Below are positions 9,385-27,449 of a DNA stretch of 64,000 bases, one piece after another. Origin of the DNA: Candidatus Poribacteria bacterium (lineage in GTDB: Bacteria; Poribacteria; WGA-4E; WGA-3G); assembly GCA_965232545.1 (NCBI GenBank), contig OZ246979.1, forward strand, positions 5,811,287 to 5,875,286, written 5' to 3'. A model generated the notes under the pieces. It was not told where the DNA came from. It worked only from the letters and a program-made list of their open reading frames with translations, and ran no database searches. The translations under genes were made by a program, and so were the position numbers. Positions within the stretch are counted from its first letter, which is position 1. Each line of letters begins with the position of its first letter.

Positions 9385-9419
9385 TTGACTTTCTGTTTGA
9401 CATATTTTTTTCGGAATTA

Positions 9420-9460
9420 TGCACCTATCCCCTTCTAATTCGCGTCACTATATAGTGAAG
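9420..9460 (+). promoter_or_regulatory. ECF-type promoter (copy 1)
   Basis: TGCACC-15 nt-CGCGTCACTATATAGTGAAG; near-identical motif at 11034 and on the minus strand at 27409. Confidence 0.65.
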
Positions 9461-9560
9461 TGAACGGGTAGGTATTTCTTGAATCTTTTAAGGGTTCCTA
9501 TCCGCGAAACGTCCAAATTGTTACGTCCCTTGATACAAACAGTCTTTCTGGAGAGGTCTG

Positions 9561-10775
9561 ATGAAAATCGATGATGTTGAGTTGATCCAGCGCATCCTTG
9601 CCGGTGATGAGACCGCCTTTGCCAAGTTAATCAGAAAGTACGAACAACAGGTTCACACGCACGCATTGCGGAAAATAGGGGACTTCCACATTGCTGAGGA
9701 CATTACACAGGAGACCTTCCTGCAAGTCTATCAGCACTTGGAAACCCTAAACGATTCGACACAGTTTTCAAGATGGCTTTATCAGATCGTGAATCATCTG
9801 TGTATCGCATGGCACCGGAAAAATAGGCTACAGACCGAATCATTGGAAGAAATCCACGTTTCGGAAATAGAAACAGAACCGTGTTCCCGGTATGTCGCAT
9901 CGGAACGCGAGAAAGTATCTGCTGAAGCGCAGCGCGACCTCGTCAAAAAACTGCTTGCGGAGTTGAAGGAAAGTGACCGAGAGGTTATCACACTCCACTA
10001 CTTTGAAGAGATGACCTCTTCAGAGATAGGGACGTATTTAGGTGTATCTGAAAATACGATTAAGAGTCGGCTTCACCGTGCGCGACAGCAGTTAAAGAAG
10101 TATCAACTCATGATTCAAGAAGCATTAGACATTACAACTGAGGGGAAACACCGTTCCCAAACGCAGATGGAAGGAGAGATTAGCATGGCAGCAGAAATGA
10201 GAGATGAAGCCAAGACCGAAGCACGATTAAAAGAACTGCAGTGTCAGATTGCTAACCTGCAAGAGGAAATTAGGGTTATCGCAGCTGAATCGGGTGCTTT
10301 TCACCCTGATGACATGAAATTTCTTGATCCGGAAAAAAGTGTAGCTCTTAGGACGTTATGTCGTCTCCCCGATAGTGATGAAAGGGCGATCTCGTGGGGG
10401 TATGTCGGTGGCTATCGGACCGCTCCAGGCAAAATGACTGCCCGCGTTGCATTCTGGGGGGATAACATCGATAGTTTCCTAACGAGAGCACCGGACACTG
10501 GAATCGTGAACTTTGCAAGTCTCTTCACAAGTCCCACCATAGTCGCTGTTTTAAGGCAATTAGTGGACGGAAAGAAATCGGTCGCGGATCTGGCAAAAGG
10601 GTGTGGTATCTCAGAAGGTGAAATAGAGAAAGTCGTGCAGACATTAATGGAGGCAACGTTAGTGGCGCGCACAGAAGATAATCTCATTGAACCCAAAAAC
10701 GATGTCGTCTCCTTTTTCCTGAACTTCGTGAGTATGACAATCGTGCATCTTGGGCATATCAAATCTGAGAATTAA
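9561..10775 (+). CDS. ECF sigma-70 factor with C-terminal coiled-coil and winged-helix extension
   Basis: Region 2 (AEDITQETFLQVY...FSRWLY) and region 4 (EIGTYLGVSENTIKSRLHRAR); about 220 extra aa ending in an ArsR-like wHTH (VLRQLVDGKKSVADLAKGCGISEGEIEKVV). Confidence 0.85.
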   Translation: MKIDDVELIQRILAGDETAFAKLIRKYEQQVHTHALRKIGDFHIAEDITQETFLQVYQHLETLNDSTQFSRWLYQIVNHLCIAWHRKNRLQTESLEEIHVSEIETEPCSRYVASEREKVSAEAQRDLVKKLLAELKESDREVITLHYFEEMTSSEIGTYLGVSENTIKSRLHRARQQLKKYQLMIQEALDITTEGKHRSQTQMEGEISMAAEMRDEAKTEARLKELQCQIANLQEEIRVIAAESGAFHPDDMKFLDPEKSVALRTLCRLPDSDERAISWGYVGGYRTAPGKMTARVAFWGDNIDSFLTRAPDTGIVNFASLFTSPTIVAVLRQLVDGKKSVADLAKGCGISEGEIEKVVQTLMEATLVARTEDNLIEPKNDVVSFFLNFVSMTIVHLGHIKSEN

Positions 10776-10873
10776 GCTTGGTTCTCGCTGGCGAGGGTCT
10801 TAGAAAAACCAAGAGGCGGTTCTTTCTAACCTTCGCCACCGCAATGCCATATTTTAGGCAAGCCTTTTGACAA

Positions 10874-11004
10874 ATATAGTAAAATCCGAAAATAAGTTTA
10901 CATTTTGGGAAACCCGCGCCCTGCTTCCTGCCCGCTGTAGGAGGGAACTCCGATTCCCGACTCTTCTCCTATGGGTGTATAAGTAATTACAGGTTCTACT
11001 ATAT
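10874..11004. mobile_element. MITE-like element containing a family A REP
   Basis: atatagtaaaa...ttctactatat inverted ends (10/11 match); GTAGGAGGGAACTCCGATTCCCGACTCTT at 10937-10965. Confidence 0.45.
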
Positions 11005-11033
11005 TTTCTTTCAAACCTACTTTTCCAAAATTA

Positions 11034-11073
11034 TGCACCCTTTTCTTTCAATTCGCGTCATTATATAGTGAAG
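11034..11073 (+). promoter_or_regulatory. ECF-type promoter (copy 2)
   Basis: TGCACC-14 nt-CGCGTCATTATATAGTGAAG. Confidence 0.65.
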
Positions 11074-11175
11074 CGAATCAATAGAATGTCTCTTTGTGTG
11101 CTGTAAGTGCATCTATCAGCGAAAGGTGCAATTGCAGAGACCCCTTGGTAAAAGTAGTCTTTCTGGAGATGTCCA

Positions 11176-11652
11176 ATGAGAGATGACGACGTTGCATTGA
11201 TCCAGCGTATTCTTGCAGGTGATGAGAATGCTTTTGAAAGCTTGGTCAGAAAGTACCAAAAGCAGGTTCACGCGCTCGCATTTCGGAAAGTAGGCAATTT
11301 TCAAACTGCCGAGGACATTACACAGGAGACTTTCCTGCGAGTCTATCAGAAACTCGCAACGCTAAACGACCCAACAAAGTTTTCAGGGTGGCTATATGCG
11401 ATTGTGAATCATCTGTGTATCGCATGGCACCGAAAAAATCGACTACAGACCGAATCGCTGGAAGAAATCCATATTTCGGAAATAGAGGCAGATGTGTATT
11501 CTCGATATGTCGCATCTGAACACGCAAAAATGACTGCTGAGGCGCAACCTGACTTGGTCAGAAAGCTGCTTACCAAGTTGAAGGAAAACGATCGAGAGGT
11601 TATCACACTGCACTACTTTGAAGAAATGACATCTTCAGAGATAGGGACGTAA
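11176..11652 (+). pseudogene. truncated paralog of the upstream ECF sigma factor
   Basis: Close paralog of the 9561 gene over 158 aa; similarity ends at SSEIGT* inside the region 4 HTH. Confidence 0.8.
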
Positions 11653-11697
11653 GAAGGTCTAAGTAATTCTAAAATCTACCATAAAAGGAATCGCTCA

Positions 11698-13209
11698 ATG
11701 TTCTTGGTACTCCTCAAACGAGAGATTCTCGCCCATCTGATAACATTTCGCTTTGTAGTCGCGGTGATTACCTGCTTGCTTCTCGTCGTCATAACCACGC
11801 TTATCAGAATCGACGATTACGAGAAACGATTGGCGGGTTACAATACCGCCAGAAATGCCAATCGTGAAGAACTTTTGTCCACCCGAACCTATTCCCTTTT
11901 AATGCCAAAGGTCGATCGACCGCCTAATCCACTGAGCATCTTTAATGCCGGTATGGACAACCGACTCGGTAATACGTTGCGAATCTATTACACAAATGTT
12001 CCTGTCCTCTGGGACGCTCAAACCCACAGTTCAGGGAACATTTTCATCGATCACTTCTATCGAATTGACCTCATCTTCATTTTTCAGTTTGTGCTTTCAC
12101 TGCTGGCACTGCTGTTCGCCTACGATGCAATTGCAGGCGAACGTGAAACGGGCACAATGCGCCTGACAATGAGCCATTCTGTAAGGCGTGGAAGCATCTT
12201 GACAGCGAAGTACCTCGGTGCGATGACGTGTCTAATTCTGCCGCTTATCATGAGTTTTATCATCGCTTTGATTTGGATAGTCTCAATTGGTTCAATCGTC
12301 TTCAGTGGAGAAGATTTTCTACGAATCGCAGGCATTCTGCTAACTTCGATTATCTATCTTTCCGCTATCTACTTGGTTGGATTGTTTATCTCTACTTCGG
12401 TGCACCGCACCGCCACAGCACTCATGATTTCTCTGTTTGTCTGGGTGGTACTGGTGTTGGTTTATCCTTCTCTTAGCGTGTCTGTGGTTGATCAACTGAT
12501 AAAACCCCAAGGGAGTAGGATAGATTCCAGTTACGATGCGATGCGGCAAATACGACTGGCAGTCAATAAAGAAGAGGTGGAATATCTTAACAACGATCAA
12601 ATCGAAGGCGAAAGTGATCGCTTTAACTTGGATGGGGCTCTTACACGTGGATTACATGTCGGTATCGGTAACAAACGGACACTGATGCGTATAGACTTCA
12701 AAGGGTATGATTGGCAACACATCAGTTCGGAATCTGAAAAATTCATTCCTCACGCCATTCGCTATCATCAATTCTTAACACCCTTATGCCTTGATGCAGC
12801 AGAGAAAATGGGATTGATACGCCTGCCTACACTGGAGCAACTCCGGTTTCGGAGAGCCAGAATCGCTCGGAACCTACTTCGCCTTTCACCCGCGGCGATG
12901 TATAATCTCGCAACACAAGCATGGGCAGGAACAGACCTCTACGGAGTTGAGGATTTTTTTCAGACAGCACGCCAATATCGACGGACGCTGGTCAATTACT
13001 TCTACGATAAAGATGCCTTTTCAAGCAGACAATGGTTCGCCAGTGATAAGGGAGCAATTGATTTAGACGATCTCCCAAGATTTGTCTACCAGCGTGCCGA
13101 TCTCTGGACAAACGCTTCACGGGCACTTCCCGACCTGCAGCTACTACTACTGCTCAACGTTGCATTGTTCCTGTTAACATTCGCAATCTTCGTCAGACAA
13201 GAGATTTAG
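11698..13209 (+). CDS. ABC-2 type transporter permease with large extracytoplasmic domain
   Basis: LKREILAH N-terminus, YDAIAGERETGTMRL, KYLG, multiple TM helices, C-terminal FVRQEI. Confidence 0.8.
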   Translation: MFLVLLKREILAHLITFRFVVAVITCLLLVVITTLIRIDDYEKRLAGYNTARNANREELLSTRTYSLLMPKVDRPPNPLSIFNAGMDNRLGNTLRIYYTNVPVLWDAQTHSSGNIFIDHFYRIDLIFIFQFVLSLLALLFAYDAIAGERETGTMRLTMSHSVRRGSILTAKYLGAMTCLILPLIMSFIIALIWIVSIGSIVFSGEDFLRIAGILLTSIIYLSAIYLVGLFISTSVHRTATALMISLFVWVVLVLVYPSLSVSVVDQLIKPQGSRIDSSYDAMRQIRLAVNKEEVEYLNNDQIEGESDRFNLDGALTRGLHVGIGNKRTLMRIDFKGYDWQHISSESEKFIPHAIRYHQFLTPLCLDAAEKMGLIRLPTLEQLRFRRARIARNLLRLSPAAMYNLATQAWAGTDLYGVEDFFQTARQYRRTLVNYFYDKDAFSSRQWFASDKGAIDLDDLPRFVYQRADLWTNASRALPDLQLLLLLNVALFLLTFAIFVRQEI

Positions 13210-13242
13210 ACTTTGCTCGCGGACTTCCAACGGAGATAGAAG

Positions 13243-14715
13243 ATGATTTTTCATATCGTTAAACGTGAACTCTACGATCATTTGAGTAGCCTCCGTTTCG
13301 CGCTGACAACCTTATTAATTCTAATACTGATGATTGTCAACGCTATCGTGTATCTCGGAGAATACAAGCAGCGAATGGGTGAATATCAAAAGCAGGTGGC
13401 TCGGTCACGTAACGAGTTGAAATCTCGGGGATCGAGCTTGTATCGTTTGACGTTAAGGGGGCCTGGTCACCTCTACAAAAAACCGAGTCCTTTGGCTTTT
13501 TGTGCGGACGGCAGAGAAAAAGTCTTACTTGGCGAAGTCCGCGGCAACACTGCGGGACGGACACGTCGGTGGCGAAGTGGTGATACTTCCTACAAGTTCA
13601 CAGAAACCTGGGGGTTAGTATATCCCCCCAATACCGATCTACTGTTTATTTCAGAGCAGATACCAACGGAAAGAAGTATCATGCCAGCTTATATCAAAAT
13701 CGATTGGGGATTTGTGACAGCAGTGCTATTGAGTTTCATGGGTATCCTATTTACGTTCGATTCGATCTCCGGTGAGCAGGAACGAGGCACACTACGGTTG
13801 ATGCTGGCGAACAGTATTTCACGAAACACCGTGATTTGCGGCAAATTTTTGGGTGCATTTTTTACGATCGCTCTTCCATTTTTGATCGGAGTGATCGTCA
13901 GTACCTCTATCATTTACCTTTCCGCAGTCATTCAATTCAACAACAGCCATTGGATGAGGTTGGGTTCCATTGTTTGTGTCGCGCTAACCTATACCTCAAT
14001 TTTTATTCTGTTGGGACTCCTCGTTTCCAGTTGTGTTAAAGAATCCTCAACGAGTCTCGCAATTCTTTTGTTGGTTTGGACAGTTTGGGTGGTGCTAATG
14101 CCAAACGCGCTGGGTTCCCTCGGGAACCGTTTGCAGCCCCGTCCCACTCCCAAAGAATTTATGGCTCAGGTTCAAGATTCGCGCGAAGATTTGCAGACAC
14201 GCTACTTTGCGAGGATTAAAGAACCACCCCGGCAAGAGATCCCAGCGACAATCGCAACAGCGTTAGGCGCGGAATATGTTAATAAAGACGCTGAGCTACG
14301 CGATCGCTTGTGCTCGGATTACCTTTTTGCCGAACTCCGTCAAATCCAAATTGCTCGCTCCCTTACCCGTATTTCACCAGCAGCGGTTGTGCAGTACGCT
14401 TTTGAAGGGCTTGCAGGCACCGGTTTTTCTCGCCATTTAGACTTCATCTCCCAAACACGTCAATACGCGAAGCAGTTTCGACAATTCCTCATTGATACCG
14501 ATCGGTCAGATCCAGACAGTCCACACACAGTCGGTATTCCAGAGGGCACATCCCAAAAACCGGTGAACTTTGATGCCGTCCCGAAATTTGAGGATCAACA
14601 CCGCTTTGGTACAGATCTTAATGCCGCAATTATCGACTTACTGTTGCTAATTATGTTTCTGTTGGTGTTGTTTGTCAGCACATTTCTCTCTTTTCTGCGC
14701 ATGGAGATTGGGTGA
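13243..14715 (+). CDS. ABC-2 type transporter permease (paralog)
   Basis: VKRELYDH, FDSISGEQERGTLRL, GKFLG, C-terminal FLRMEI. Confidence 0.8.
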   Translation: MIFHIVKRELYDHLSSLRFALTTLLILILMIVNAIVYLGEYKQRMGEYQKQVARSRNELKSRGSSLYRLTLRGPGHLYKKPSPLAFCADGREKVLLGEVRGNTAGRTRRWRSGDTSYKFTETWGLVYPPNTDLLFISEQIPTERSIMPAYIKIDWGFVTAVLLSFMGILFTFDSISGEQERGTLRLMLANSISRNTVICGKFLGAFFTIALPFLIGVIVSTSIIYLSAVIQFNNSHWMRLGSIVCVALTYTSIFILLGLLVSSCVKESSTSLAILLLVWTVWVVLMPNALGSLGNRLQPRPTPKEFMAQVQDSREDLQTRYFARIKEPPRQEIPATIATALGAEYVNKDAELRDRLCSDYLFAELRQIQIARSLTRISPAAVVQYAFEGLAGTGFSRHLDFISQTRQYAKQFRQFLIDTDRSDPDSPHTVGIPEGTSQKPVNFDAVPKFEDQHRFGTDLNAAIIDLLLLIMFLLVLFVSTFLSFLRMEIG

Positions 14716-14781
14716 TTTACAAACACGCTCATACTACTGAAAATTGATAAATTGGCCTACCACAAACAGTCATTCCTTGAT

Positions 14782-14892
14782 TTGACTTCCCTTCCCAAAT
14801 GTGTTACTATTTTAACAATTGACTACAGCGACGCACGGCTCGGAAGGTTTTCTGTGTGTCTTGTAATATCGGTATAATGTGTTTTAACACAT
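14782..14892 (+). promoter_or_regulatory. promoter and palindromic operator of the toxin-antitoxin operon
   Basis: TTGACT-17-TACTAT with TG extension (14782-14810); second TATAAT 14873-14878 overlapped by ATGTGTT-TT-AACACAT (14877-14892). Confidence 0.55.
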
Positions 14893-14904
14893 AAAAGGTT
14901 GGGA

Positions 14905-15243
14905 ATGCGGAACACAGCACCCAGAAAACTACAAGTCTATCGGGACCAAAACGGACGACAACCCTTCACAGAATGGTTTTATGCAATTCAAGATATAAAA
15001 ACTCGAACGAGAATTCGCAAACGACTGGACCGGCTTGAAGATGGGAATTTTGGCAACTGCAAATCTGTTGGTAACGGTGTCTTTGAGCTACTTCTCCACT
15101 TTGGTCCAGGCTATCGCATCTATTTTGCGCAGAGCGATAACACGCTCGTTCTTTTGCTCTGTGGTGGTGACAAATCATCGCAGAAACAAGACATTGCGCG
15201 GGCAAAGAACTATTGGTTGCAATATAAGGAGACACAACGATGA
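14905..15243 (+). CDS. RelE/HigB-like addiction module killer toxin
   Basis: RIRKRLDRLEDGNFGNCKSVGNGVFEL, HFGPGYRIYF, LLCGGDKSSQKQDI. Confidence 0.85.
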   Translation: MRNTAPRKLQVYRDQNGRQPFTEWFYAIQDIKTRTRIRKRLDRLEDGNFGNCKSVGNGVFELLLHFGPGYRIYFAQSDNTLVLLLCGGDKSSQKQDIARAKNYWLQYKETQR

Positions 15244-15638
15244 CAGAACTCAGAACATGGCGCGAGGTCTTAATAGCAGATCTCGCTGCTAATCGAGCTG
15301 AAGCAATCGACTATTTTGATTTGTCACTGCAGGAATACCAACTTGACGGTGACACGCCTTTCTTTCTCAAAGGACTCCGCAACATTATAGAGGCACTCGG
15401 TGGTGTCCCCGAAATTGCAAAACAAACGGGGACGGAGCCGGAAAACCTCCTTGAAGTACTATCCAGCGATGAGCCACCTCGCCTTGATACGCTCCACATT
15501 CTTGCTAACGCACTGGGGGGTCGGCTGTCAATCGAACCGCTGGAGGCTGGAAATCCGAGCCATCAAGTTAAGGATAAGGATTATCCGGCTGCGTCCCGAG
15601 AGTCTGAACGTCCCCCTCTTGAAATTGCTACCGACTGA
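15240..15638 (+). CDS. HigA-like addiction module antidote (HTH)
   Basis: ATGA overlap with the toxin; GGVPEIAKQTG...PRLDTLHILANALG HTH. Confidence 0.8.
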   Translation: MTELRTWREVLIADLAANRAEAIDYFDLSLQEYQLDGDTPFFLKGLRNIIEALGGVPEIAKQTGTEPENLLEVLSSDEPPRLDTLHILANALGGRLSIEPLEAGNPSHQVKDKDYPAASRESERPPLEIATD

Positions 15639-15763
15639 GGACAAACAGAGACGCGATAAGAATAGTGAACCATTGACGATTGATGCTTTTTTCGTGATGC
15701 TCAATAAAAAATTCAAGAAGGTATAACCCTGTACAGATAAACCCCTCAACGTTCAAAGCAACT

Positions 15764-16558
15764 ATGCCGATACCAAATTTCCCCGACAAACATAAATCTC
15801 GCCCTATCGTCACGCCACAGCAACACGTCGCGTACTTCCGTCAGCAAGGTTTCATCCCCGATTTCCCGATTCCTGAGAGTGTCATTTTCTGTTATGAAGG
15901 GAATCTTCTGGATCGTATTACCCGCGTTGAAAGTGTGGAGCAGGTTCATGGGGTAGGCGGAGGCTTCTATCTGCTGACCGAAACCGGTAATCGGGTGGCA
16001 GTTAGCGGCAATAACGGCATCGGTGCGCCGGGTGTGTCAATGATCCTTGAACTTCTGATAGAGTTGGGTGTTAAACGGTTTATCAACGTCGGAATCGCCG
16101 GTGGATTACAAAAGACCGCTCGTATTGGCGATGTCGTCGTTGGCACCAGTGCCATTCGCGATGAGGGCGTTTCATACCACTACTTGAAAGACCCTTCGGT
16201 ACCCGCTTTGCCGTCCGAAAAACTGACAGCCGCTCTTAGGCAAACTCTCGAACGGGAAGGTATACATTACACGCAGGGACCGACATGGACAACCGATGCT
16301 TATTTTCGTGAAACAGTTGGAGAAATTCAGCACTATCAACAGGAAGGGGTTGTTACGGTTGAAATGGAAGCCGCCGCCTTATTCGCCATCAGTACACTGC
16401 GCGGCGTGGACATGGCATCAGGATTCGTCATCAGCGACTTGGTAGCAGAATTGGCGTGGCATCCACAGATCCTCGCCCAAGAAACACATGAGAGTCTTTT
16501 TCGCTTATATCAGGCAGCACGTACAGTTTTAGACGAAACAAATGAAAACCAACACTAA
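15764..16558 (+). CDS. nucleoside phosphorylase (PNP/UDP family 1)
   Basis: GIGAPG, GIAGGL, AIRDEGVSYHY, WTTDAYFRET, VEMEAAAL. Confidence 0.85.
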   Translation: MPIPNFPDKHKSRPIVTPQQHVAYFRQQGFIPDFPIPESVIFCYEGNLLDRITRVESVEQVHGVGGGFYLLTETGNRVAVSGNNGIGAPGVSMILELLIELGVKRFINVGIAGGLQKTARIGDVVVGTSAIRDEGVSYHYLKDPSVPALPSEKLTAALRQTLEREGIHYTQGPTWTTDAYFRETVGEIQHYQQEGVVTVEMEAAALFAISTLRGVDMASGFVISDLVAELAWHPQILAQETHESLFRLYQAARTVLDETNENQH

Positions 16559-16685
16559 GGGAAAGTTTGATATAGCATCAAAACCCAAGCTCGTAATGAA
16601 GTGGAGAGCGACTCGAACACAAGAACCTTCAAGTAGCGTTAACCGCTACTTATTCGCAAGGTAAAATTAAAAAAAGGAAAGGCAA

Positions 16686-17507
16686 ATGCCAATACTGACA
16701 CAGGCACACCGAGAACACTTTGATGAATACGGCTACATGGTCATCGAAAATGCTGTCCCGACTGAACTTTGCAATGCTGTTGTTGACGCGATCTTTGCGT
16801 TCTTAGAGATGGACCCTTCAGACCCAAACGGTTGGTACCGCGCACCTCATAAACCCGGAGCAGGCATGGTGGAAATGTACCAACACCAAGCCATGTGGAA
16901 CGTCTACCAGCATCCACCGATCCATCGAATCTATACAGAGGTCTACGGCACCGAACGGATCTGGGTGCATCCTGACCGAGTCAACATGAAACCCCCTAAA
17001 CACCCCGACTACCCTGAATGGGATCATAAGGGGATGTACCACTGGGATGCGGACACCTCCAAATTACCCATTAATTTCGGCACACAGGGGGTACTATTTC
17101 TGGCTGACACGACTGACAATCAGGGGTCTTTTGTGTGTTGGCCCGGCGCACATAAGTCGCTAATTGACAAAGAGAACCCGTGGGTGCCAGAGATTTCGCC
17201 GGAACATTTCATTCAAGTACCTGCGAAGGCGGGTTCATTGCTCGTATGGCATAAAGCCCTTCCACACGGCAACGGTCGCAATACTTCCGACAAGCCGCGA
17301 CTCGCGCAATACATGAACTTCTACCCAGTCCCCGACCCAATCGATGAAGAACGACGGCAAGAACGCATCACCTTGTGGCGCGAACGAAGAGCATTGGGGC
17401 GAGGTCCCTATCCAGGCGACCCACGAGGGTGGGAAGCGAAAAATTATGGACCCGCAGAACTGACACCCTTGGGACGAAAACTCCTGGGACTCGATTTGTG
17501 GGACTAA
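16686..17507 (+). CDS. phytanoyl-CoA dioxygenase (PhyH) family Fe(II)/2OG enzyme
   Basis: HFDEYGYMVIENA, HWD (HxD) and distal HGNG...R. Confidence 0.8.
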   Translation: MPILTQAHREHFDEYGYMVIENAVPTELCNAVVDAIFAFLEMDPSDPNGWYRAPHKPGAGMVEMYQHQAMWNVYQHPPIHRIYTEVYGTERIWVHPDRVNMKPPKHPDYPEWDHKGMYHWDADTSKLPINFGTQGVLFLADTTDNQGSFVCWPGAHKSLIDKENPWVPEISPEHFIQVPAKAGSLLVWHKALPHGNGRNTSDKPRLAQYMNFYPVPDPIDEERRQERITLWRERRALGRGPYPGDPRGWEAKNYGPAELTPLGRKLLGLDLWD

Positions 17508-18304: not shown

Positions 18305-18538
18305 ATTTTCCTCCTGTGTCAAAATACGATTCAGATTTCAGACCTAAATCCTATTATTTCAGTGTAGGATGTAGCGTCGCTTGGGTATATCAGCCTATGG
18401 TTTTCTAAAAAGTAGATTGTAACAAAATCTCGCAAAATAGACAAGAAAAAACAGTGATAGCCAGAGTCATTCAATACACCTAATACGCCTTGCATATCTT
18501 AAAAAAAATGACCAAGACAAAAATTTTTGAAAAAAAAT

Positions 18539-18599
18539 TTGACAAAGGGGGAAACGTGTGATATAATATTTACACCGTTAAGTTAGATTACTATGTAAA
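18539..18599 (+). promoter_or_regulatory. consensus sigma70 promoter followed by two TetR-type operator boxes
   Basis: TTGACA(18539)-17-TATAAT(18562) with TG extension; TTTACACCGTTAA (18569-18581) and ATTACTATGTAAA (18587-18599). Confidence 0.75.
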
Positions 18600-18622
18600 T
18601 CATGTAGACAAAGGTTAAAGCA

Positions 18623-19228: not shown

Positions 19229-19274
19229 ATTTAAAACTATTTGGCGAAGGTCGCCATATTTTTTTGGCTATAAG

Positions 19275-19305
19275 TTAACACTGTTAAATTATTTACCTAT
19301 GTTAA
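19275..19305 (+). promoter_or_regulatory. TetR-type operator pair upstream of FG-GAP gene 1
   Basis: Perfect palindrome TTAACACTGTTAA plus TTACCTATGTTAA. Confidence 0.65.
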
Positions 19306-19335
19306 TATCTTATAAAACTCGAATGGAGAAAAAAA

Positions 19336-21054
19336 ATGAAAAAGCGAAATCGATACCACAAACGCATTCTTCCCAGAAAAAAGAGATCAGTAGTCGAACA
19401 CATAGGGAATTATCGACGCATCCTGTTCACAACACTGCTCCTCGGTGTATTTTTATCGGGATTCTTAACTTCGTTTGGCGGAGACGGAGAGCAGACACCG
19501 ACTGCCTCCGCGGAATACACTTTCGATCAGTACGAGATCGTTACCGGCACAGCGAAACGCCAGACCGTTCTGACAGGGTTTCTTCTCGATGGTGATTTCG
19601 CCGAACTTGGTGTAGTGTACATCGACGAGAACGCTGACCGTCGTTTGCGTATCTACGCCTTTGGTAACGATACATGGACACCGAAACTCGACGCGACGCT
19701 GCGTCCCCAAGTGTTGTTCATCGATGTGGCAAATATTAACGGGTGCGACCGACTGATTACATACGAACGCGATCGCCTGAACTGGTTTGATCCAGAATCG
19801 TCGACACATCACGTGCTCGTAGAGGTACCTTCTAACTTCAAACCACCTCGCAGCGGCGAAATCCCTCATGTAGACATCACTCGGGACGTGAACGCCGACA
19901 AGCGCGACGACTTAGTGGTGCCTGACTCAGACGGCTTCTGGGTGTCCATCCAGATGAACGACGGCACGTTCGCCGATCCGGTGAAACTCGGTCCGCCTAC
20001 TGAGATGGAGAGGATCCTTGGAGCAGATGGATATCGATATAACCCCTGGTCGCAAAGCCGCATCTACGAAATCGACTACAACAGAGATGGACGCACCGAT
20101 CTCGTGTTCTGGGACGGAGATCACTTCAAGGTTCATCTCCAAGATGAGAGCGGATTGTTTGCACCAAATGCCAAAACTTTCACAACAGATGTGGCATTCG
20201 ACTCGGACCGACTTTCCTTACTCACTACAGGGAACATGGTAGGAAAGGTGTTGCACTCGTTGGCTGATCTGAACGGCGACGGAGCCGCTGACTTGGTGGT
20301 TTTCAAGCTTTCAGGCACAGACATCTCCAGCAAGCACTCCAGTTACGAGGTGCATTTCGGCGCGCTAACACCCGATGGCGGCACCACTTTCGCACCAGAT
20401 GCTGACATCGCGTTCCAGTCGGACGAGAAAATCCAACTCGGGATGGACCAGCACGACTTCAATCGCGATGGTCAGGTTGACCTAATGATTACGACGATCC
20501 ATACCGAGTGCCTCAAAGGCAGCCTTTGGAAGAGCATCAAGGGGTTCATGGGAGATGACATCGGGCTGGGACTTGAGTTCTACCAAATGGATGAAGGTCG
20601 CTATCCAAATACACCCAACACCACCCGTAGCATCGCGTTGGACGGAGTACCCAGCCATCGCGAACCAGGGTGGGTACCATTGGATGTTGTGCTCCGAGGA
20701 GCAACCCATGAGAGACGGAACGCTCAGCAGAGTTACCCACGCGCGTTCAACGCAACCTTGCGCATTGGGGATGTTACCGGCGACGGTCGTCCGGATCTCC
20801 TCATCGCCGATCACCCACGGATTATGGTTGTTTTCGTCGGCGTACCGGGACCGGAAATATTTGCCCAACAAGCTCAGAGGGTGGCAGTTGCTCTTCCCAA
20901 TGACGAAGAATACACCTATCTGGTGGACCTCAACAAGGACGGGGTACAGGATATCCTTATGCATCACCCATTCACGCTACGAGACGCTCACGGAGCCCAG
21001 AAACTGCCTACGGGAACTGAACCGCATCGGGTGAGGTTGCTGATTGCCCGATAA
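19336..21054 (+). CDS. FG-GAP/VCBS repeat (Ca-binding beta-propeller) exported protein
   Basis: Repeated D-x-N-x-D-G-x-x-D-L motifs (DYNRDGRTDL, DLNGDGAADL, DFNRDGQVDL, DLNKDGVQDI); N-terminal hydrophobic segment. Confidence 0.8.
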   Translation: MKKRNRYHKRILPRKKRSVVEHIGNYRRILFTTLLLGVFLSGFLTSFGGDGEQTPTASAEYTFDQYEIVTGTAKRQTVLTGFLLDGDFAELGVVYIDENADRRLRIYAFGNDTWTPKLDATLRPQVLFIDVANINGCDRLITYERDRLNWFDPESSTHHVLVEVPSNFKPPRSGEIPHVDITRDVNADKRDDLVVPDSDGFWVSIQMNDGTFADPVKLGPPTEMERILGADGYRYNPWSQSRIYEIDYNRDGRTDLVFWDGDHFKVHLQDESGLFAPNAKTFTTDVAFDSDRLSLLTTGNMVGKVLHSLADLNGDGAADLVVFKLSGTDISSKHSSYEVHFGALTPDGGTTFAPDADIAFQSDEKIQLGMDQHDFNRDGQVDLMITTIHTECLKGSLWKSIKGFMGDDIGLGLEFYQMDEGRYPNTPNTTRSIALDGVPSHREPGWVPLDVVLRGATHERRNAQQSYPRAFNATLRIGDVTGDGRPDLLIADHPRIMVVFVGVPGPEIFAQQAQRVAVALPNDEEYTYLVDLNKDGVQDILMHHPFTLRDAHGAQKLPTGTEPHRVRLLIAR

Positions 21055-21083
21055 ATCCATCGGTTATATTTTTTGTCTATCAC

Positions 21084-21114
21084 TTAACACTGTTCATTTA
21101 TTTACCTATGTTAA
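21084..21114 (+). promoter_or_regulatory. duplicated TetR-type operator pair upstream of FG-GAP gene 2
   Basis: TTAACACTGTTCA...TTACCTATGTTAA, near-identical to 19275-19305. Confidence 0.65.
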
Positions 21115-21142
21115 TTTATTGAAAATCCGAAAGGGAACAAAA

Positions 21143-22828
21143 ATGAAAAAGCGAAACCCATTCCACAAATACTGGATTTCCGATGAACTTAGTTCTCTGT
21201 CTCCACGCACAAGGCATTATCAACGAAGCCTGTTTTCCATACTGGTTTGCGGGATCCTCCTGTCGGGCTGTTCAGGTTTGCTCAATAAGGATGTTGTTCC
21301 GATGCCGCACGCCGCCGCTGAGCCGACCTTTGAGCAGTATAAGGTTATCACCAGCACAGCGAAACACCAAACCGTTTTAACAGGATTCCTGCTCGGTGGT
21401 GCTATCGCGGATCTCGCCATGGTAAGCGTCGATGAGAACCACGATCGTTGGTTGCGCGTCTACGCATTCAGCGACGGTACCTGGGGCCCGAAGCTCGATG
21501 TAATGCTGCATCCGCAAGTGTTGTTTGTTGACGTGGCCAACATCGATGGACACGACCGCTTGATTACGTACGAGCACGGTAAACTGAATTGGTTCGATCC
21601 CGAATCGGCGACGGAACGCGCACTGGTGGAAGTCACTATGAAATATAAAGCGACGGGCGAAGCCGGAATCCCGCATATTGATATCACCCGAGACGTAAAC
21701 CGCGACGGCTGCGACGACTTGGTGATACCCGATGTTGATGGGTTCTGGATATCCACGCAATTGCGCAACGGCTCATTCACTGATCCCGTAAAACTCGGTC
21801 CTCCCGAACCATTTCTCGGCGAGATTGCCTTAGATGATACGCGTAGCTACGGCGAGGTCGGTATAACTGCCTCGACCGTTCCTTGGTATCTGAGTCGTGT
21901 CCACGAGGTGGACTACAACCAGGATGGGCGCAGCGATCTCGTGTTCTGGAACAAGGACCATTTCGACGTTTATTACCAAGACGCGCAGGGTCTGTTTTCT
22001 CCTGTCGCTGAGACCTTCACGATTCCCGAAGTGCCATTCGACACTGACGGTGCTTACTCGATCGCCTTCGGATTCGGCGGCGAGAGTTCGTTTTCGCTCA
22101 TCTTTGGATTCAGAGAGAACACGAAGATGAGGGTGCTGCACTCATTCCGCGATGTGAATGGCGATAGTGTTGCCGACCTTGTGATCCTCTCGCTAGAGGG
22201 ACGAAGTCTACTGAACCAGCGCAGCCTATACGAGGTGCATTTCGGTACACCAACACCCGACGGCATCTTGTTCGCACGGGAGGTCAGCACGGTGATCCAA
22301 CCGCAAGGAACCGCTGGTGGATTGCAGCACTCCGGATATTCGTCGGTGTGGTTACAGGATTTCGACGCCGATGGTCAGATCGACATTATGTTCAGAGACG
22401 TAAAGATAGGTCTCGGGGGGATGATGCGTGCCCTCCTCGGCAATTCCATCATGATAGATGTTGAATTCTATCGAATCGAAGACGGTATCTACCCCGACAA
22501 GCCAACTGCCACGCATAAAATTAGACCCCGCATCAACCTCTTTGACAGACAAAACATATTCTTATCGCCGGTGCTGATGGGAGATGTAAACGGCGATAGA
22601 CGCTTGGATCTGTTGGTGGGGAAGAGCCGGGAGGAGCTGCAAGTCTTTATCGGTGTACCTGGGGCCGACCTATTGGCGCAGCAGCCCAAAAAGGTCGCGG
22701 TCACCTTGCCTATGGACGAACGGAATACCCGGCTGGTAGACCTCAACAAGGACAGTAAACAAGACATTTTCATGTATCATCCATCCACTACCGAACCACA
22801 TCGGGTGACACTACTGGTCGCTCAATAA
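21143..22828 (+). CDS. FG-GAP/VCBS repeat lipoprotein (paralog)
   Basis: MKKRN start as in the paralog; lipobox LLSGC; DVNRDGCDDL, DYNQDGRSDL, DVNGDSVADL, DVNGDRRLDL. Confidence 0.8.
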   Translation: MKKRNPFHKYWISDELSSLSPRTRHYQRSLFSILVCGILLSGCSGLLNKDVVPMPHAAAEPTFEQYKVITSTAKHQTVLTGFLLGGAIADLAMVSVDENHDRWLRVYAFSDGTWGPKLDVMLHPQVLFVDVANIDGHDRLITYEHGKLNWFDPESATERALVEVTMKYKATGEAGIPHIDITRDVNRDGCDDLVIPDVDGFWISTQLRNGSFTDPVKLGPPEPFLGEIALDDTRSYGEVGITASTVPWYLSRVHEVDYNQDGRSDLVFWNKDHFDVYYQDAQGLFSPVAETFTIPEVPFDTDGAYSIAFGFGGESSFSLIFGFRENTKMRVLHSFRDVNGDSVADLVILSLEGRSLLNQRSLYEVHFGTPTPDGILFAREVSTVIQPQGTAGGLQHSGYSSVWLQDFDADGQIDIMFRDVKIGLGGMMRALLGNSIMIDVEFYRIEDGIYPDKPTATHKIRPRINLFDRQNIFLSPVLMGDVNGDRRLDLLVGKSREELQVFIGVPGADLLAQQPKKVAVTLPMDERNTRLVDLNKDSKQDIFMYHPSTTEPHRVTLLVAQ

Positions 22829-22846
22829 ACAAAAAGGAGTAAAACA

Positions 22847-23398
22847 ATGACACGCACAATTTTCTGTCTAACCTATATCCTTATCGGGATAACCTTCAGT
22901 TTCTCAGCACAAGCACAAGAAAACGAACTTGCTCAAAACGGTGCGCAGCAAGACAAATTCCTCACGAGTGACTCGACATTTGGCATCGGACTTCAGGGGG
23001 CTACCTCTGAATTTGGTGGAATTAGTTTTCGCTACACTGGACTCGCCCCCATATACTTTCAAACCGTTGGACGTTTTATTCTCAAGGATCAGGATAGCGA
23101 CCACATGTTCGGAGGTGGCATCTCATACGCTATATTTGAGCACCAAGGCAGGTGGCATACATCACGACTCTATTTCACCTTAGAAGGGGGTTGGCAATAT
23201 AAAGAGGAACAGAATGTCCTTACCACGACGTTAGGAGGTGGACTCGCTTTTGGAGGTGAACTTGTGTTCTCACTCGGCGGTATTCCGCTCGGTTTGAACG
23301 TGGAAGTCGGACAAGGATTTGGCAGGGAAAAAACCGACGCACAATCTAAAGGTCTCGCGGGGGTTTTTGTAGGAATGGGTATACATGCCTATTTTTGA
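22847..23398 (+). CDS. putative small outer-membrane beta-barrel protein
   Basis: Signal peptide, alternating Gly/aromatic strands, terminal aromatic residue (GMGIHAYF). Confidence 0.55.
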   Translation: MTRTIFCLTYILIGITFSFSAQAQENELAQNGAQQDKFLTSDSTFGIGLQGATSEFGGISFRYTGLAPIYFQTVGRFILKDQDSDHMFGGGISYAIFEHQGRWHTSRLYFTLEGGWQYKEEQNVLTTTLGGGLAFGGELVFSLGGIPLGLNVEVGQGFGREKTDAQSKGLAGVFVGMGIHAYF

Positions 23399-23468
23399 TG
23401 AAAGCCTTGCCTTATAGATTGAGTCGAATATAATCTCGCCAAAAAAAGGCGTAGCAAAACGTATACAG

Positions 23469-23498
23469 AAAGGCATTGGCACGACAGCCAGTGCCTTT
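23469..23498. terminator. putative bidirectional terminator
   Basis: aaaggcattggc/gccagtgccttt stem between convergent genes. Confidence 0.5.
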
Positions 23499-23699
23499 GA
23501 AACTAAAACTAACAACGCTGAGCATTCCTGACTCACGAAATTTTCATAGCAACTTTCATAGCAACCTCTTAAAAAATCGCCCTAAACCCAATAATGTTCA
23601 TTTACACGCGTCCATTGGCTGTCGTTAGACTTGGTTGTTATATTTGCATGCTAATCAATGCACGCAGGCAATGTTGGATACATTTGACCGACAGTTGAC

Positions 23700-25439
23700 T
23701 TAATTGCCAGCATGTATGCCTGCGAATTGTTTCTGGAATAGGTCGTGATATACACCACCCCGTTGAAGCAGTTCGGCATGTGTACCGGTTTCAACGAGCC
23801 TACCGTCTTTGAGGACAAGGATTTTGTCAGCATCTAAAATGGTTGAGAGTCGGTGTGCGATGACGAAACTGGTGCGTCCTCTCATGAGGCGTGTGAGTGC
23901 TTCTTGGACGAGTGCCTCGGATTCTGCATCCAAAGACGATGTTGCCTCATCAAGAATGAGGATTTTGGGGTCTCTAATAAGCACGCGCGCGATAGCGATC
24001 CGTTGCTGTTCACCCCCAGACAGTCGAACGCCGCGCTCACCAACTTTCGTCTCATACTGCTCTGGGAAATTCATGATGAAATCGTGGGCATTTGCTAACT
24101 TCGCGGCGGCGACGATCTCTTCGTGTGTGACTGCTTCTGGGTCTTCCGCACCCAGACGGATATTGTAGGAGATGCTTTCAGCGAACAGATACGGATCTTG
24201 AAAAACGATGCCGATATGGGCCCGTAGAGACTGGATTTGGATCTCTTGGATGGGAATGGCATCTATCAAGATACTGCCTTGCTGTGGATCATAGAAACGT
24301 GGAATTAAACTGATGAGGGTGCTTTTACCTGCACCACTGGGTCCAACTAATGCGACCGTCTCATCGGGTTCCGCTTGAAAGTTCATTTCTTGTAAAATCG
24401 GTGCCGCTTCGTTATATTCAAAGGAGACGTTGGAGAATTGGACACGTCCCTCAATTTGTTCTATCGGTGTTCCTTCTCGCGATTCTTCCTCATGTTCATC
24501 GAAGAACGCGAAAATACGCCGAGCGGCAACCATGATTGACGGGATTCCGAGATGGAGTTTTACAAGTTGTGACACAGGCGCGTGTACATTGCCAAAATAG
24601 TGTATGATGACAAGAAGCTCACCGATGGTAATCGCATCGCGCAGGACGTAACCCCCGCCTATGAAAAATATGAGACCCCGGGCTAACCAGAATAGAATGA
24701 TGGTGAACCCACCGCCTGCCTGCCGAATGAGTCCGTGTCTAATGCCGATTGCGATGAGCCGTTCGATAAACTGGCGTAGGTTCTTTAAATCATAAAATTC
24801 CTTTCCTAATCCTTTCAGCTCACGAGAACCAGCAATGCTTTCCTGTAGTTTGCTTGACAGGCGTGCGTTCTGTTCTTGGATTTCCTCACCCATTCGACCG
24901 AGCGGTTTATCCAAAACCGCGGGGATGATTATGTTTACGGCGACGAGTAATAAGGAGAGAATACACAACTGATAGTTGATGTATGTAATAATACCGAGTG
25001 TTACAACGAGCATAATACCGTTTATAATATAGTCGCCAGCAAACAAGTTGAATCCTTGCACCGCTGCTGGCGTATCTGATGTGAACGTCGCCATGACTTT
25101 GCCGGTTTGGTGCGTGTCGTAAAATTTGAATCCTAATTTGCGGAGATGGTGGTAGGCTTCAAATTGAATGTCTTTCGATCCATTCTCCGAAACCTTCGCC
25201 GGAAAGTAAGTCGTTCCAAATCGGAAAAAGTACATACCGACCGCAGTTAGAGCATAGAATCCGCAGGTAGGTAGCAACAGTTCAGCGTTTTTTGGGATAA
25301 AGACATCGTCGATCAGAATCTTCCGAAGCCAGGGCCATATAAGGCTACAGCCTGAGTTGCCCAATGCGCAGAAGATAAAGAGCAGTTGGAAGTGCCAATA
25401 CGGTTTTAGATACGACAACAGTCGCAGAATGTCTTTCAT
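23700..25439 (-). CDS. ABC exporter (MsbA-like TMD+NBD), paralog 2
   Basis: GPSGAGKS, LSGGEQQR, ILDEATS; starts MKDILRLL 1 nt after the paralog 1 stop. Confidence 0.9.
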   Translation of the reverse strand: MKDILRLLSYLKPYWHFQLLFIFCALGNSGCSLIWPWLRKILIDDVFIPKNAELLLPTCGFYALTAVGMYFFRFGTTYFPAKVSENGSKDIQFEAYHHLRKLGFKFYDTHQTGKVMATFTSDTPAAVQGFNLFAGDYIINGIMLVVTLGIITYINYQLCILSLLLVAVNIIIPAVLDKPLGRMGEEIQEQNARLSSKLQESIAGSRELKGLGKEFYDLKNLRQFIERLIAIGIRHGLIRQAGGGFTIILFWLARGLIFFIGGGYVLRDAITIGELLVIIHYFGNVHAPVSQLVKLHLGIPSIMVAARRIFAFFDEHEEESREGTPIEQIEGRVQFSNVSFEYNEAAPILQEMNFQAEPDETVALVGPSGAGKSTLISLIPRFYDPQQGSILIDAIPIQEIQIQSLRAHIGIVFQDPYLFAESISYNIRLGAEDPEAVTHEEIVAAAKLANAHDFIMNFPEQYETKVGERGVRLSGGEQQRIAIARVLIRDPKILILDEATSSLDAESEALVQEALTRLMRGRTSFVIAHRLSTILDADKILVLKDGRLVETGTHAELLQRGGVYHDLFQKQFAGIHAGN

Positions 25440-25440
25440 G

Positions 25441-27174
25441 TTACGCCCCCTTTTGCATTCCTGCGAACTGTTTCTGGAATAGGTCGTGATATACACCACT
25501 ACGTTGAATCAACTCAGCGTGTGTGCCGGATTCAACGAGTTCTCCATCGCTGAGTACAAGAATCTTGTCAGCGTTCAAGATGGTTGAGAGTCGGTGTGCG
25601 ATGACGAAACTGGTGCGACCTCTCATGAGGTGTGTGAGTGCTTCTTGAACGAGTGCTTCGGATTCTGCGTCCAAAGATGATGTTGCCTCATCGAGAATGA
25701 GGATTTTGGGGTCTCTGATAAGCACGCGCGCAATGGCAATGCGTTGCTGTTCGCCGCCGGATAACTGAACCCCACGTTCGCCGATTTCACTCTCATATTG
25801 TTCAGGAAATTTCATGATAAAGTCGTGTGCGTTTGCTAACTTTGCGGCGGCGATAACCTCTTCGTGTGTGACTGCTTCTGGATCCGCTGCACCTAAGCGG
25901 ATGTTGTAGGCGATGCTCTCGGCGAATAGATATGGGTCTTGAAAAACAGTGCCGATATGCGATCGCAACGATTGGATTTGGATTGTATTGATCGGTGTGG
26001 CGTCGATAAGGATATTACCGTGTTGGGGTTCATAAAAGCGCGGAATTAGGCTCACCAAAGTGCTCTTACCGGCACCGCTGGGTCCGACTATCGCAATTGT
26101 TTCGCCGGGTTCTGCTTGGAAACGAATCCGTTTCAAAACGGGGTGTGCTTCGCTGTATTCAAAGGAGACATCAGAAAATTGAATGCTTCCCTCAATTTGC
26201 GTGAGAGGTGTACCATCTTGAGGTTCTTGCTCGTGTTCATCAAAGAACGCGAAAATCCGACGAACCGCCGCCATGACGGATGGAATGCTGAGATGAAGGC
26301 TTACGAGAAAGTGCACAGGACGTTGCAGCGCATTGAACCACATGACTACCGCAAAGAGTTCTCCCACGGTCATCGCGTCTCGTAGGACATACCCACCTCC
26401 CACCAGAAGCACCAGGGCATCGCTGAGCCACCAGATGACTAAGATATCCCCCACCTTTTGGATCTTTACCTGTTTGATACGGATTGTCACAAGTTGCTTC
26501 AGAAAGTGATGGATGTTTTTTAAATCGTAGAGTTCTTTCCCCAATCCCTTGAGTTCACGGGAACCGGCAATGCTTTCCTGAAGGTTGCTTGACAGTATAG
26601 CGTTTTGTTCCTGTACTTCCTCTCCTATGCGATTAAGGGATTTGTTTAAAAGGATTGGCATCAAGACGGTCACGCCGACGAGGAGCAGTGAGAGAAGGCA
26701 TAACTGCCAACTAACGTGCATGACGACAGGGATAGTAACAATGAGCAGAATGGTGTTCGTCGGGTAGTCGCTGGCAAATATCTGGAACCCCTCTATCGCC
26801 TTTGGCGTGTCTGACGTGAACAGTGCCATGACCTTGCCGGTCTGCTGCGTGTCGTAAAATTTGAAGCCTAATCTACGGAGGTGATGGTAGGCGGCGAGTT
26901 GGATGTCTTTCGCGGCGTTTTGTGCGACCTTTATAGGAAAGTAAGCGAATCCAAGTGAAAAGAGGTACATGCCGAAGGCGATCAGCATCCAGAATCCGCA
27001 CGTAGGCAATAGTTTATCGGCATCTTTTGCGAGAAAGACATCGTCAATCAGAATCTTTTCAATCCAAGGAAGAACGATGAACCCACTCCAGTAACCGAGC
27101 GTGCAAAGAATGTAAAGCCCTTGGAAATGCCAATACGGTTTTAGGTATGACAGGAGCCGCAGAACATCTTTCAT
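25441..27174 (-). CDS. ABC exporter (MsbA-like TMD+NBD), paralog 1
   Basis: Same motifs; starts MKDVLRLL. Confidence 0.9.
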   Translation of the reverse strand: MKDVLRLLSYLKPYWHFQGLYILCTLGYWSGFIVLPWIEKILIDDVFLAKDADKLLPTCGFWMLIAFGMYLFSLGFAYFPIKVAQNAAKDIQLAAYHHLRRLGFKFYDTQQTGKVMALFTSDTPKAIEGFQIFASDYPTNTILLIVTIPVVMHVSWQLCLLSLLLVGVTVLMPILLNKSLNRIGEEVQEQNAILSSNLQESIAGSRELKGLGKELYDLKNIHHFLKQLVTIRIKQVKIQKVGDILVIWWLSDALVLLVGGGYVLRDAMTVGELFAVVMWFNALQRPVHFLVSLHLSIPSVMAAVRRIFAFFDEHEQEPQDGTPLTQIEGSIQFSDVSFEYSEAHPVLKRIRFQAEPGETIAIVGPSGAGKSTLVSLIPRFYEPQHGNILIDATPINTIQIQSLRSHIGTVFQDPYLFAESIAYNIRLGAADPEAVTHEEVIAAAKLANAHDFIMKFPEQYESEIGERGVQLSGGEQQRIAIARVLIRDPKILILDEATSSLDAESEALVQEALTHLMRGRTSFVIAHRLSTILNADKILVLSDGELVESGTHAELIQRSGVYHDLFQKQFAGMQKGA

Positions 27175-27205
27175 ATCACGTTTTCTTTTTTGGGGACGCG
27201 AATAA

Positions 27206-27248
27206 GGCTTCGGTCTGAAAGGATAAAAATCTCCCACAGACCGAAGCC
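27206..27248 (-). promoter_or_regulatory. 5' leader hairpin of the ABC exporter pair
   Basis: Perfect 12-bp inverted repeat ggcttcggtctg/cagaccgaagcc with 19-nt loop. Confidence 0.45.
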
Positions 27249-27377
27249 GACCGAAAACAGTGGCATCTCAGCCAAGCATATTTCTTGACTGAAAAGACCC
27301 TATTCCCGGTCCCTCTATGCGCGTATTGTTACTACAAACGAGTCCCTAAAAAGTTGCATATTTCCATTTTTTATTTT

Positions 27378-27410
27378 TAGTGACGCGATTTGGAGACGAA
27401 AAGGATGCAT
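27378..27410 (-). promoter_or_regulatory. ECF-type promoter (copy 3)
   Basis: Minus strand ATGCATC-CTTTTC-gtctccaaat-CGCGTCACTA, matching copies 1 and 2. Confidence 0.6.
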
Positions 27411-27449
27411 GATTTTGCAAAAAATCGTAAAAAGTGGAAGATAGGGTCT

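Follow-up and report, generated by a model that had tools for sequence, protein, structure and literature searches.

One probable promoter motif before sigma factor and ABC transporter genes in a Candidatus Poribacteria genome suggests a phylum-specific family of ECF sigma factors with fused C-terminal modules

Poribacteria are uncultivated sponge symbionts, and to our knowledge the regulation of their genes is essentially unknown. A stretch of 64,000 nucleotides (nt) from one such genome (Candidatus Poribacteria bacterium, assembly GCA_965232545.1, contig OZ246979.1, forward-strand positions 5,811,287 to 5,875,286; hereafter the window) raises the question of which protein reads three copies of a bipartite DNA motif. 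These copies, termed P1, P2, and P3, precede a gene for a 404-amino-acid (aa) extracytoplasmic function (ECF) sigma factor, a shortened second sigma gene followed by two ABC-2-type permeases of the ATP-binding cassette (ABC) class, and a pair of ABC exporters, respectively. Judged from comparisons with other genomes, the three sites probably (about 0.8) represent the cognate promoter used by a Poribacteria family of ECF sigma factors that carry fused C-terminal modules and have no separate anti-sigma factor. If so, the locus provides a precise promoter-sigma pair together with a natural specificity switch of one amino acid versus one base, and it captures the evolution of a regulon in progress, because a very recent sigma deletion has left one promoter directly before transporter genes.

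The pattern ATGCAYC-N14-16-CGCGTCAYTA matches the window exactly three times, at 9419-9450 (+), 11033-11063 (+), and 27378-27410 (-), and it matched none of 100 dinucleotide-preserving shuffles. A looser pattern returned the same three sites only, and a mismatch-tolerant scan of the window added no site at 0-1 mismatches. The single weak extra site found by the latter scan (1973-2006, 2 mismatches) lies within an open reading frame (ORF), has its CGTC box destroyed, and probably is a chance match. P1, P2, and P3 all are intergenic and oriented to the gene ahead. P1 is separated by 110 nt from the gene for the 404-aa sigma, P2 by 112 nt from the 158-aa remnant of a second sigma, and P3 by 140 nt from the first of the ABC exporters; the P3 region begins 40 nt past the stop codon of the upstream gene. 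Their spacers measure 15, 14, and 16 nt before CGCG, or 14, 13, and 15 nt before TCGCG. No sigma70-type consensus promoter in the correct orientation was found in the three intergenic regions, which speaks against alternative promoters of this type for the three units. An earlier note on this DNA had reported the three copies, with coordinates off by one base, as well as a CTTTTC that copies 2 and 3 carry directly behind their -35 boxes; both observations were reproduced. The copies do not amount to three independent matches, because copies 1 and 2 are part of one tandem duplication that extends from the promoter through codon 158 (~80% nt identity). Their DNA similarity begins just upstream of the -35 box and ends abruptly at codon 158; inside this duplication, spacer and leader have changed more than the two boxes. 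What copy 3 has in common with the others is limited to the boxes and some positions of the leader. It lacks such flanking homology and is independent of copies 1 and 2.

Beyond the window, the motif accompanies one family of sigma genes. A scan for ATGCAYC-N13-15-TCGCGTCAYTA in one genome per species (185,579 species) yielded at least 120 loci; L numbers below denote loci compared with the window. Among the scan loci listed, ~100 belong to Poribacteria metagenome-assembled genomes, several of which yield 3-4 motif loci each, and ~20 are scattered singletons of unrelated phyla. The first downstream ORF codes for an ECF sigma factor of one paralog family in 93 of 104 cases, for an ABC exporter in three (the window, L042, and L130), and for a 245-aa secreted protein in four to five; spacers of 13, 14, and 15 nt occur at 19, 33, and 54 sites. 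Conservation outside the search pattern is confined to the Poribacteria sites and comprises the T-rich stretch and AATT ahead of the -35 box, a TTTT with which the spacer opens, and a tAa that precedes TCGCG. When the family sigma genes with enough upstream sequence are considered, 80 of 120 have the exact motif. The other 40 had not been selected by the pattern, and 29 of them have the motif at 1-3 mismatches, in nearly all cases preceded by AATT. In the class of ~1000-aa sigmas the ATG lies 20-21 nt past the motif with GGAGG in between, a geometry that permits transcription to start only just after the CGTC box. Viral contigs were discarded as further motif carriers: their scan gave 8 isolated matches without conserved flanks, which served as chance controls.

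ECF sigma factors as a rule control their own expression, and the motif that they target is conserved along with the protein group (PMC7826278). The comparative data agree with the earlier note in its reading of the motif as an ECF-type promoter with a bipartite architecture of -35 box and CGTC -10 box. Its expectation of autoregulation is also borne out as a prediction: the motif stands before ECF genes of one family, orthologs and paralogs alike, and co-varies with region 4.2 of the sigma (sigma4.2). The proposed export regulon is in part correct in that ABC proteins are found behind the motif here and in relatives, but it was overstated, since ~90% of the exact sites precede sigma paralogs. 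A role in detoxification or peptide export received no specific support.

The co-variation concerns base 6 of the -35 box (ATGCA-Y-C) and one residue of the sigma4.2 helix (S-x-N/G-T-I-K-S-R). In 95 pairs with the sigma gene directly downstream, the combinations are C with Asn (78), T with Gly (12), A with Gly (4), and A with Ser (1), without a single exception. A neighbour-joining tree of the core domains places the T/Gly pairs in two separate clades, namely the PD40 type within the membrane-anchored superclade and a short clamp type within the cytoplasmic superclade, and hence at least two independent co-changes have occurred. Such co-variation points to direct read-out by the downstream sigma, contrary to what a single master sigma or an unrelated DNA-binding protein would produce; each sigma thus probably reads its own promoter. 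A master sigma that reads the motif and turns on all family sigma genes, in a cascade rather than by autoregulation, would account for one nearly invariant motif before dozens of different paralogs and for the motif upstream of loci with a 220-aa ECF sigma. It is improbable nonetheless, as it would not yield a co-variation of the -35 base with sigma4.2 of the gene directly downstream, and the 220-aa ECF sigma has its own GAAC-N16-CGTCTAA site nearer its start. At the six loci of this kind (L017, L029, L032, L051, L058, and L127), the motif lies ~200-250 nt upstream of that canonical ECF site, which precedes the ordinary 220-aa ECF sigma and then tadA and dnaX. This arrangement may reflect a sigma cascade or an unannotated transcript between both sites.

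The 404-aa protein encoded behind P1 contains the Pfam domains Sigma70_r2 (residues 23-89) and Sigma70_r4_2 (residues 127-178), and regions 1.1 and 3 are absent. Among the NCBIfam models only the superfamily model TIGR02937 passes (115.4 bits, cut-off 42.9), and no equivalog cut-off is reached. In Foldseek searches the top matches of the N-terminal half are ECF sigma structures (SigL, SigW, AlgU, and sigmaE), to which the protein is 23-31% identical. Its sigma4.2 helix, SENTIKSRL, is of the Asn type, and the P1 site is kept before orthologs in L009, L010, L076, L110, L120, and L124. Relatives form at least 120 full-length clusters at 70% identity or more, and those with a named source all are Candidatus Poribacteria. 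Sigma4 is followed by ~220 extra residues that are conserved at full length in these clusters. This extension is neither SnoaL_2 (as in ECF41 and ECF56) nor a TPR domain (as in ECF42) and consists of a coiled coil and an ArsR/SmtB-like winged helix-turn-helix (wHTH) domain: residues ~303-397 match the ArsR-family repressor NolR (4omz) in Foldseek (TM 0.72), accompanied by weak similarities to HTH_20/MarR_2 in Pfam and to SmtB in phmmer (E = 0.18). Foldseek also matches the protein to SigG1 (7qh5). In the AlphaFold2 model, sigma2 and the wHTH are confident and sigma4 is less so (predicted local distance difference test scores, pLDDT, of about 57-78 per block); with an overall pLDDT of 60 and a predicted template modelling score (pTM) of 0.28, the arrangement of the domains is not confident.

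As the earlier note had stated, there is no anti-sigma gene nearby. A Pfam scan of ORFs from 5000 to 29800 revealed no anti-sigma domain, and no ORF of at least 70 aa occurs on the plus strand between the 404-aa sigma gene and P2. By its fusion after sigma4 and the missing anti-sigma factor, the protein belongs to the ECF sigmas with C-terminal extension. In such sigmas, which have no anti-sigma factor, the extra domain after sigma4 is a candidate for activity control (PMC8999054, PMC3426412). The fused C-terminal extension offers the best explanation for the missing anti-sigma factor, and the ArsR-like wHTH likely is the on-board regulator of the 404-aa sigma.

A wHTH domain also invites a different explanation, in which the motif is not a promoter but an operator for a DNA-binding regulator, either the ArsR-like wHTH of the sigma itself or a nearby TetR protein. 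The -10 boxes of P1 and P2 indeed lie in palindromes (TCACTATATAGTGA at P1, and a perfect 26-bp palindrome at the equivalent site in L026), and the ArsR-like wHTH fold of the extension usually binds inverted repeats as a dimer. However, the core motif is bipartite and asymmetric with a variable spacer and a strict orientation to the gene, it also occurs at promoters that lack the palindrome (the transmembrane, TM, type and P3), the co-variation involves sigma4.2 and not the wHTH, and the class with a 21-nt distance leaves no space for another promoter downstream. An operator in place of a promoter is therefore very unlikely. The palindrome was found at 14 of 25 promoters of wHTH-type sigmas, 5 of 12 of the clamp type, and 0 of 21 of the TM type. 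Thus, it is limited to promoters of cytoplasmic sigma types, which form one promoter superclade, and is missing at P3. Ancestry explains this distribution equally well as an operator role for the wHTH, and the -10 palindrome was not retained as a wHTH operator. At P2, the -10 box is located within the imperfect palindrome TTCGCGTCATTATATAGTGAAGCGAA (window 11052-11077). The ~110-nt leaders were also considered as structured RNAs or riboswitches, a reading that was rejected for want of support: Rfam gave no match to them, RNAalifold predicted no consensus pairs for 29 leaders, and two stems drawn by hand were paired in 68.8% compared with 67.2% in shuffled sequences, with covariation below the shuffled mean.

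The gene behind P2 had been called a truncated sigma. It is indeed shortened and is a very recent deletion remnant, because all relatives examined, including the closest one (L139), keep the full gene of 391-395 aa. The 158-aa remnant shares 77% identity with the first 158 residues of the 404-aa protein and lacks the sigma4.2 recognition helix and the entire C-terminal extension, with the Pfam match to region 4 ending at profile position 32 of 54. In L139, whose 404-aa sigma is 97% identical, the second gene is intact (391 aa), and the DNA is 96.8% identical to the window up to 11651 and then runs into this intact gene. The boundaries in blastn (window 11001-11649 equals L010 11315-11963; window 11683-12099 equals L010 12736-13152) correspond to a net loss of ~0.74 kb. 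The P2 site itself is kept before the 391-395-aa sigma in L009, L010, L038, and L044. In the complete genomes represented by L009, L010, and L140, the gene order is 404-aa sigma, 391-395-aa sigma, and two ABC-2 permeases of 501-503 and 490 aa, and the motif precedes both sigmas in L009 and L010, the two loci in which upstream DNA was read. After the deletion, P2 is situated ~630 nt upstream of the permease genes. Both permeases carry the domain PF12679 (E = 5e-25 and 1e-32), with DUF3526 matched in addition, and a permease pair of the same cluster follows a cytoplasmic-type family sigma in ~22 loci, which identifies the pair as a conserved operon partner and not a chance neighbour.

These events could mean that the similarity of the sites is merely inherited with duplicated DNA and that P2, perhaps also P3, is a dead relic. 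P2 did originate in a gene duplication, the sigma gene behind it is broken, and the leader of P3 is faintly similar to sigma leaders, which suggests an origin from a sigma promoter. Against such relics, which we regard as very unlikely, spacers and leaders have diverged around core boxes that do not vary, P2 is followed by undamaged ABC-2 genes of full length, the deletion is very recent to judge from the 96.8% nt identity with a relative in which the gene is intact, and the P3 boxes are kept in orthologs although the sequence just downstream differs. Two further length differences were observed at this locus. The 123 nt at window 10878-11000, between the 404-aa sigma and P2, are absent in L139 (an indel; surrounding identity 94-97%), and L141, a sister contig, has a 205-aa remnant ORF (12761-13378) where L140 (12796-15879) has both ABC-2 permease genes. 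The sigma deletion in the window and the loss of the permeases in L141 indicate that deletions between repeated modules occur readily at this locus.

P3 precedes two tandem ABC half-transporters, A and B, and is kept in the orthologous metagenome loci L133 and L138 (as ATGCACC) and L131 (as ATGCAAC, one change) and absent in L132 and L137. In L042, L080, L118, and L130, more distant exporters (~45% identity) follow either the motif or a clamp-type sigma. Both half-transporters have a six-helix ABC_membrane domain fused to ABC_tran, as is characteristic of type IV (MsbA-like) exporters; matches to MsbA and related NCBIfam models remain below their cut-offs, and no equivalog cut-off is reached. 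It is conceivable, at somewhat less than even odds, that the window does not represent one regulon, with P1 and P2 being read by Asn-type sigmas and P3 by a putative Gly-type paralog, such as one with a PD40 propeller, encoded elsewhere in the genome. P3 has T at base 6, which is found only with Gly-type sigmas (12 of 12), just as C is found only with the Asn type (78 of 78); P3 and the promoters of the PD40 type have in common a 15-nt spacer and this T, and many complete Poribacteria genomes encode sigmas of the PD40 type. On the other hand, the orthologous P3 sites have C (L133, L138) or A (L131), so that base 6 is not fixed at target promoters.

Several points weigh against a cognate promoter common to all three units. 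All of its support is comparative. The sigma paralogs were duplicated along with their promoters, so the association partly reflects common descent, and the co-variation stems from only two to three independent events. Among the classes, spacer length varies over 2 nt, a wide range for a single type of sigma. The sigma of the window is of the Asn type, elsewhere paired with C only, and P3 has T; because of this T, and with orthologs that have C or A, it is doubtful that the 404-aa sigma controls P3. Thus, of the two options in the earlier note, one ECF sigma or a paralog family, the former may not hold for both systems. The pTM of 0.28 leaves the extension without a confident arrangement that would bear on its regulatory role. 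Finally, "export" by the ABC-2 permeases is not established, because there is no ATPase gene nearby: a tblastn search of the 64-kb window with a nucleotide-binding domain detected no stand-alone ABC ATPase gene but only the three fused exporters, and none was called beside the permeases in the syntenic loci L009, L010, and L140.

If the sites nevertheless are cognate promoters of the sigma family, RNA polymerase with a family sigma would bind AATTATGCAYC as the -35 element and TCGCGTCAYTA as the -10 element, 13-15 nt apart. The former would be read by the sigma4.2 helix S-x-N/G-T-I-K-S-R, the latter would be of the CGTC type, and the transcript would begin a few bases past the CGTC box. P1 would then be the autoregulatory promoter of the 404-aa sigma. 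P2 would be the promoter of the tandem paralog that now leads nearly directly into the two ABC-2 permeases, and to fire it would have to be cross-recognized by the 404-aa sigma or by a different paralog of the Asn type. P3 would drive the two MsbA-like exporters. The comparisons show the motif, its link with this sigma family throughout the phylum, the co-variation of the -35 box with sigma4.2, the deletion, and the contents of the operons; the points of transcription start, the assignment of paralogs to promoters, a regulatory function of the extension, and the transported cargo are aspects that we infer. The features of the window are compiled in Table 1.

Table 1. Predicted promoters, genes, and other features of the locus (window coordinates).
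Feature	Position	Strand	Description
P1, promoter of 404-aa sigma	9401-9450	+	T-rich stretch and AATT upstream of -35; -35 ATGCACC 9419-9425; 14-nt spacer; -10 TCGCGTCACTA 9440-9450
Palindrome TCACTATATAGTGA	9445-9458		Perfect, 14 bp; overlaps end of P1 -10 box
Leader, ~110 nt	9451-9560	+	Sequence conserved; ends in CTTTCTGGAGA (Shine-Dalgarno region)
ECF sigma factor, 404 aa	9561-10775	+	sigma2 23-89, sigma4 127-180, coiled coil, C-terminal wHTH ~303-397
P2, promoter of tandem paralog	11015-11063	+	-35 ATGCACC 11033-11039; 13-nt spacer; -10 TCGCGTCATTA 11053-11063
Sigma remnant, 158 codons	11176-11652	+	sigma2, linker, first half of sigma4
Deletion junction, 33 nt	11650-11682	+	Replaces ~770 nt of relatives (L010 11964-12735)
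ABC-2-type permease 1, 503 aa	11698-13209	+	Pfam ABC2_membrane_2 and DUF3526
ABC-2-type permease 2, 490 aa	13243-14715	+	Pfam; same length in relatives
Toxin-antitoxin pair	14899-15638		Gp49/HigB-like toxin and HI1420-type antidote; between permease 2 and PNP-like gene
PNP_UDP_1-like gene and PhyH-like dioxygenase gene	15764-17507	+	Pfam
ABC exporter half-transporter B, 599 aa	23700-25499	-	Tandem paralog of A; ABC_membrane and ABC_tran
ABC exporter half-transporter A, 598 aa	25441-27237	-	MsbA-like; Pfam ABC_membrane and ABC_tran
P3, promoter before exporter pair	27378-27428	-	-35 ATGCATC 27410-27404; 15-nt spacer; -10 TCGCGTCACTA 27388-27378

Downstream of the permeases, the PNP_UDP_1-like and PhyH-like genes belong to clusters (c2 and c7) that also follow sigma or ABC-2 genes in L010, L044, L059, L076, L089, L098, and L110. 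The toxin-antitoxin pair has an equivalent position in L038 and is absent in L010 and L009. Exporters A and B (23700-27237) are a tandem duplication with 70% identity overall and 84% in the nucleotide-binding domains, so that the ATPase domains are far more alike than the whole proteins. Exporter A is annotated with a GTG start, its orthologs align from residue 18, and its true start may be an ATG 21 codons further in. A third ABC exporter of 815 aa (window 5000-7447, minus strand) has an N-terminal bacterial PH domain and no family motif upstream; its best NCBIfam match, below the cut-off, is a cyanophycin-metabolism-associated ABC transporter.

Sequence comparison of the sigmas suggests a Poribacteria-specific and highly paralogous ECF family in which a near-constant sigma2-sigma4 core is combined with swapped, fused C-terminal modules. 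Besides the wHTH, these modules include all three DnaN sliding-clamp domains (paralogs of 457-602 aa), a TM helix with a PD40 propeller (~556-564 aa), a TM helix with a BNR/sortilin-like propeller (~1000 aa), WD40 (~915 aa), and a SAICAR-synthase-like domain (523 aa; L140 and L141, 7952-9523). The clamp-fused paralogs, for example in L026 (576 aa), L022 (457 aa), L055, L069, L080, L104, and L118, match Pfam DNA_pol3_beta, _2, and _3, occur in many Poribacteria genomes, and often are followed by ABC-2 permeases or ABC exporters. Directly after wHTH-type sigmas, other genomes code for free wHTH proteins of ~193 aa with an N-terminal TM helix (L009 12831-13415; L073, L098, and L117; proteins P0146, P0150, P0167, and P0180); the window contains no gene for such a protein. 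The free wHTH domain is 60-70% identical to the C-terminal wHTH of the sigmas, its gene takes the usual position of an anti-sigma gene, and the TM segment resembles the first helix of ABC-2 permeases. Tentatively, the family may constitute a network of many sensors and one promoter, with dozens of one-component sensor-sigmas, a switch in sub-specificity between Asn-C and Gly/Ser-T/A, and the free membrane-anchored wHTH acting as a new kind of anti-sigma factor by domain pairing; transporter genes may join this network through deletion of a sigma ORF, as at P2.

Autoregulated ECF sigmas with fused extensions are known; what is new here is a phylum-specific ECF family not previously described in the literature searched. 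That search, which did not extend to the supplementary tables of the 2021 ECF classification, so that an earlier listing is possible, gave nothing that joins Poribacteria and ECF sigmas, and no description of an ECF-sliding-clamp fusion was found in the literature searched, including the ECF classification papers. Like SigW, sigmaE/AlgU, and SigL, its members have only the sigma2 and sigma4 core regions, a -10 element of the CGTC type, and a bipartite promoter before their own gene. The common -35 type of ECF promoters is GGAAC/TGAAC. The Poribacteria family differs from SigW, sigmaE/AlgU, and SigL by its -35 element ATGCAYC, the lack of an adjacent anti-sigma gene, and the use of one promoter type for many paralogs per genome. 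With ECF41, ECF42, ECF56/SigG1, and ECF44/CorE it has in common a domain fused after sigma4 and the lack of an anti-sigma factor, but the Poribacteria extensions are wHTH, clamp, propeller, and SAICAR-like modules and not SnoaL_2, TPR, or Cys-rich domains. ECF234, ECF257, and ECF258 of the 2021 classification resemble the family in that the sigma gene is conserved beside ABC-type membrane proteins, which are possible targets or regulators. Those groups belong to other phyla and have other partners where described, whereas the partner in Poribacteria is an ATPase-less ABC-2 pair or a set of MsbA-like exporters.

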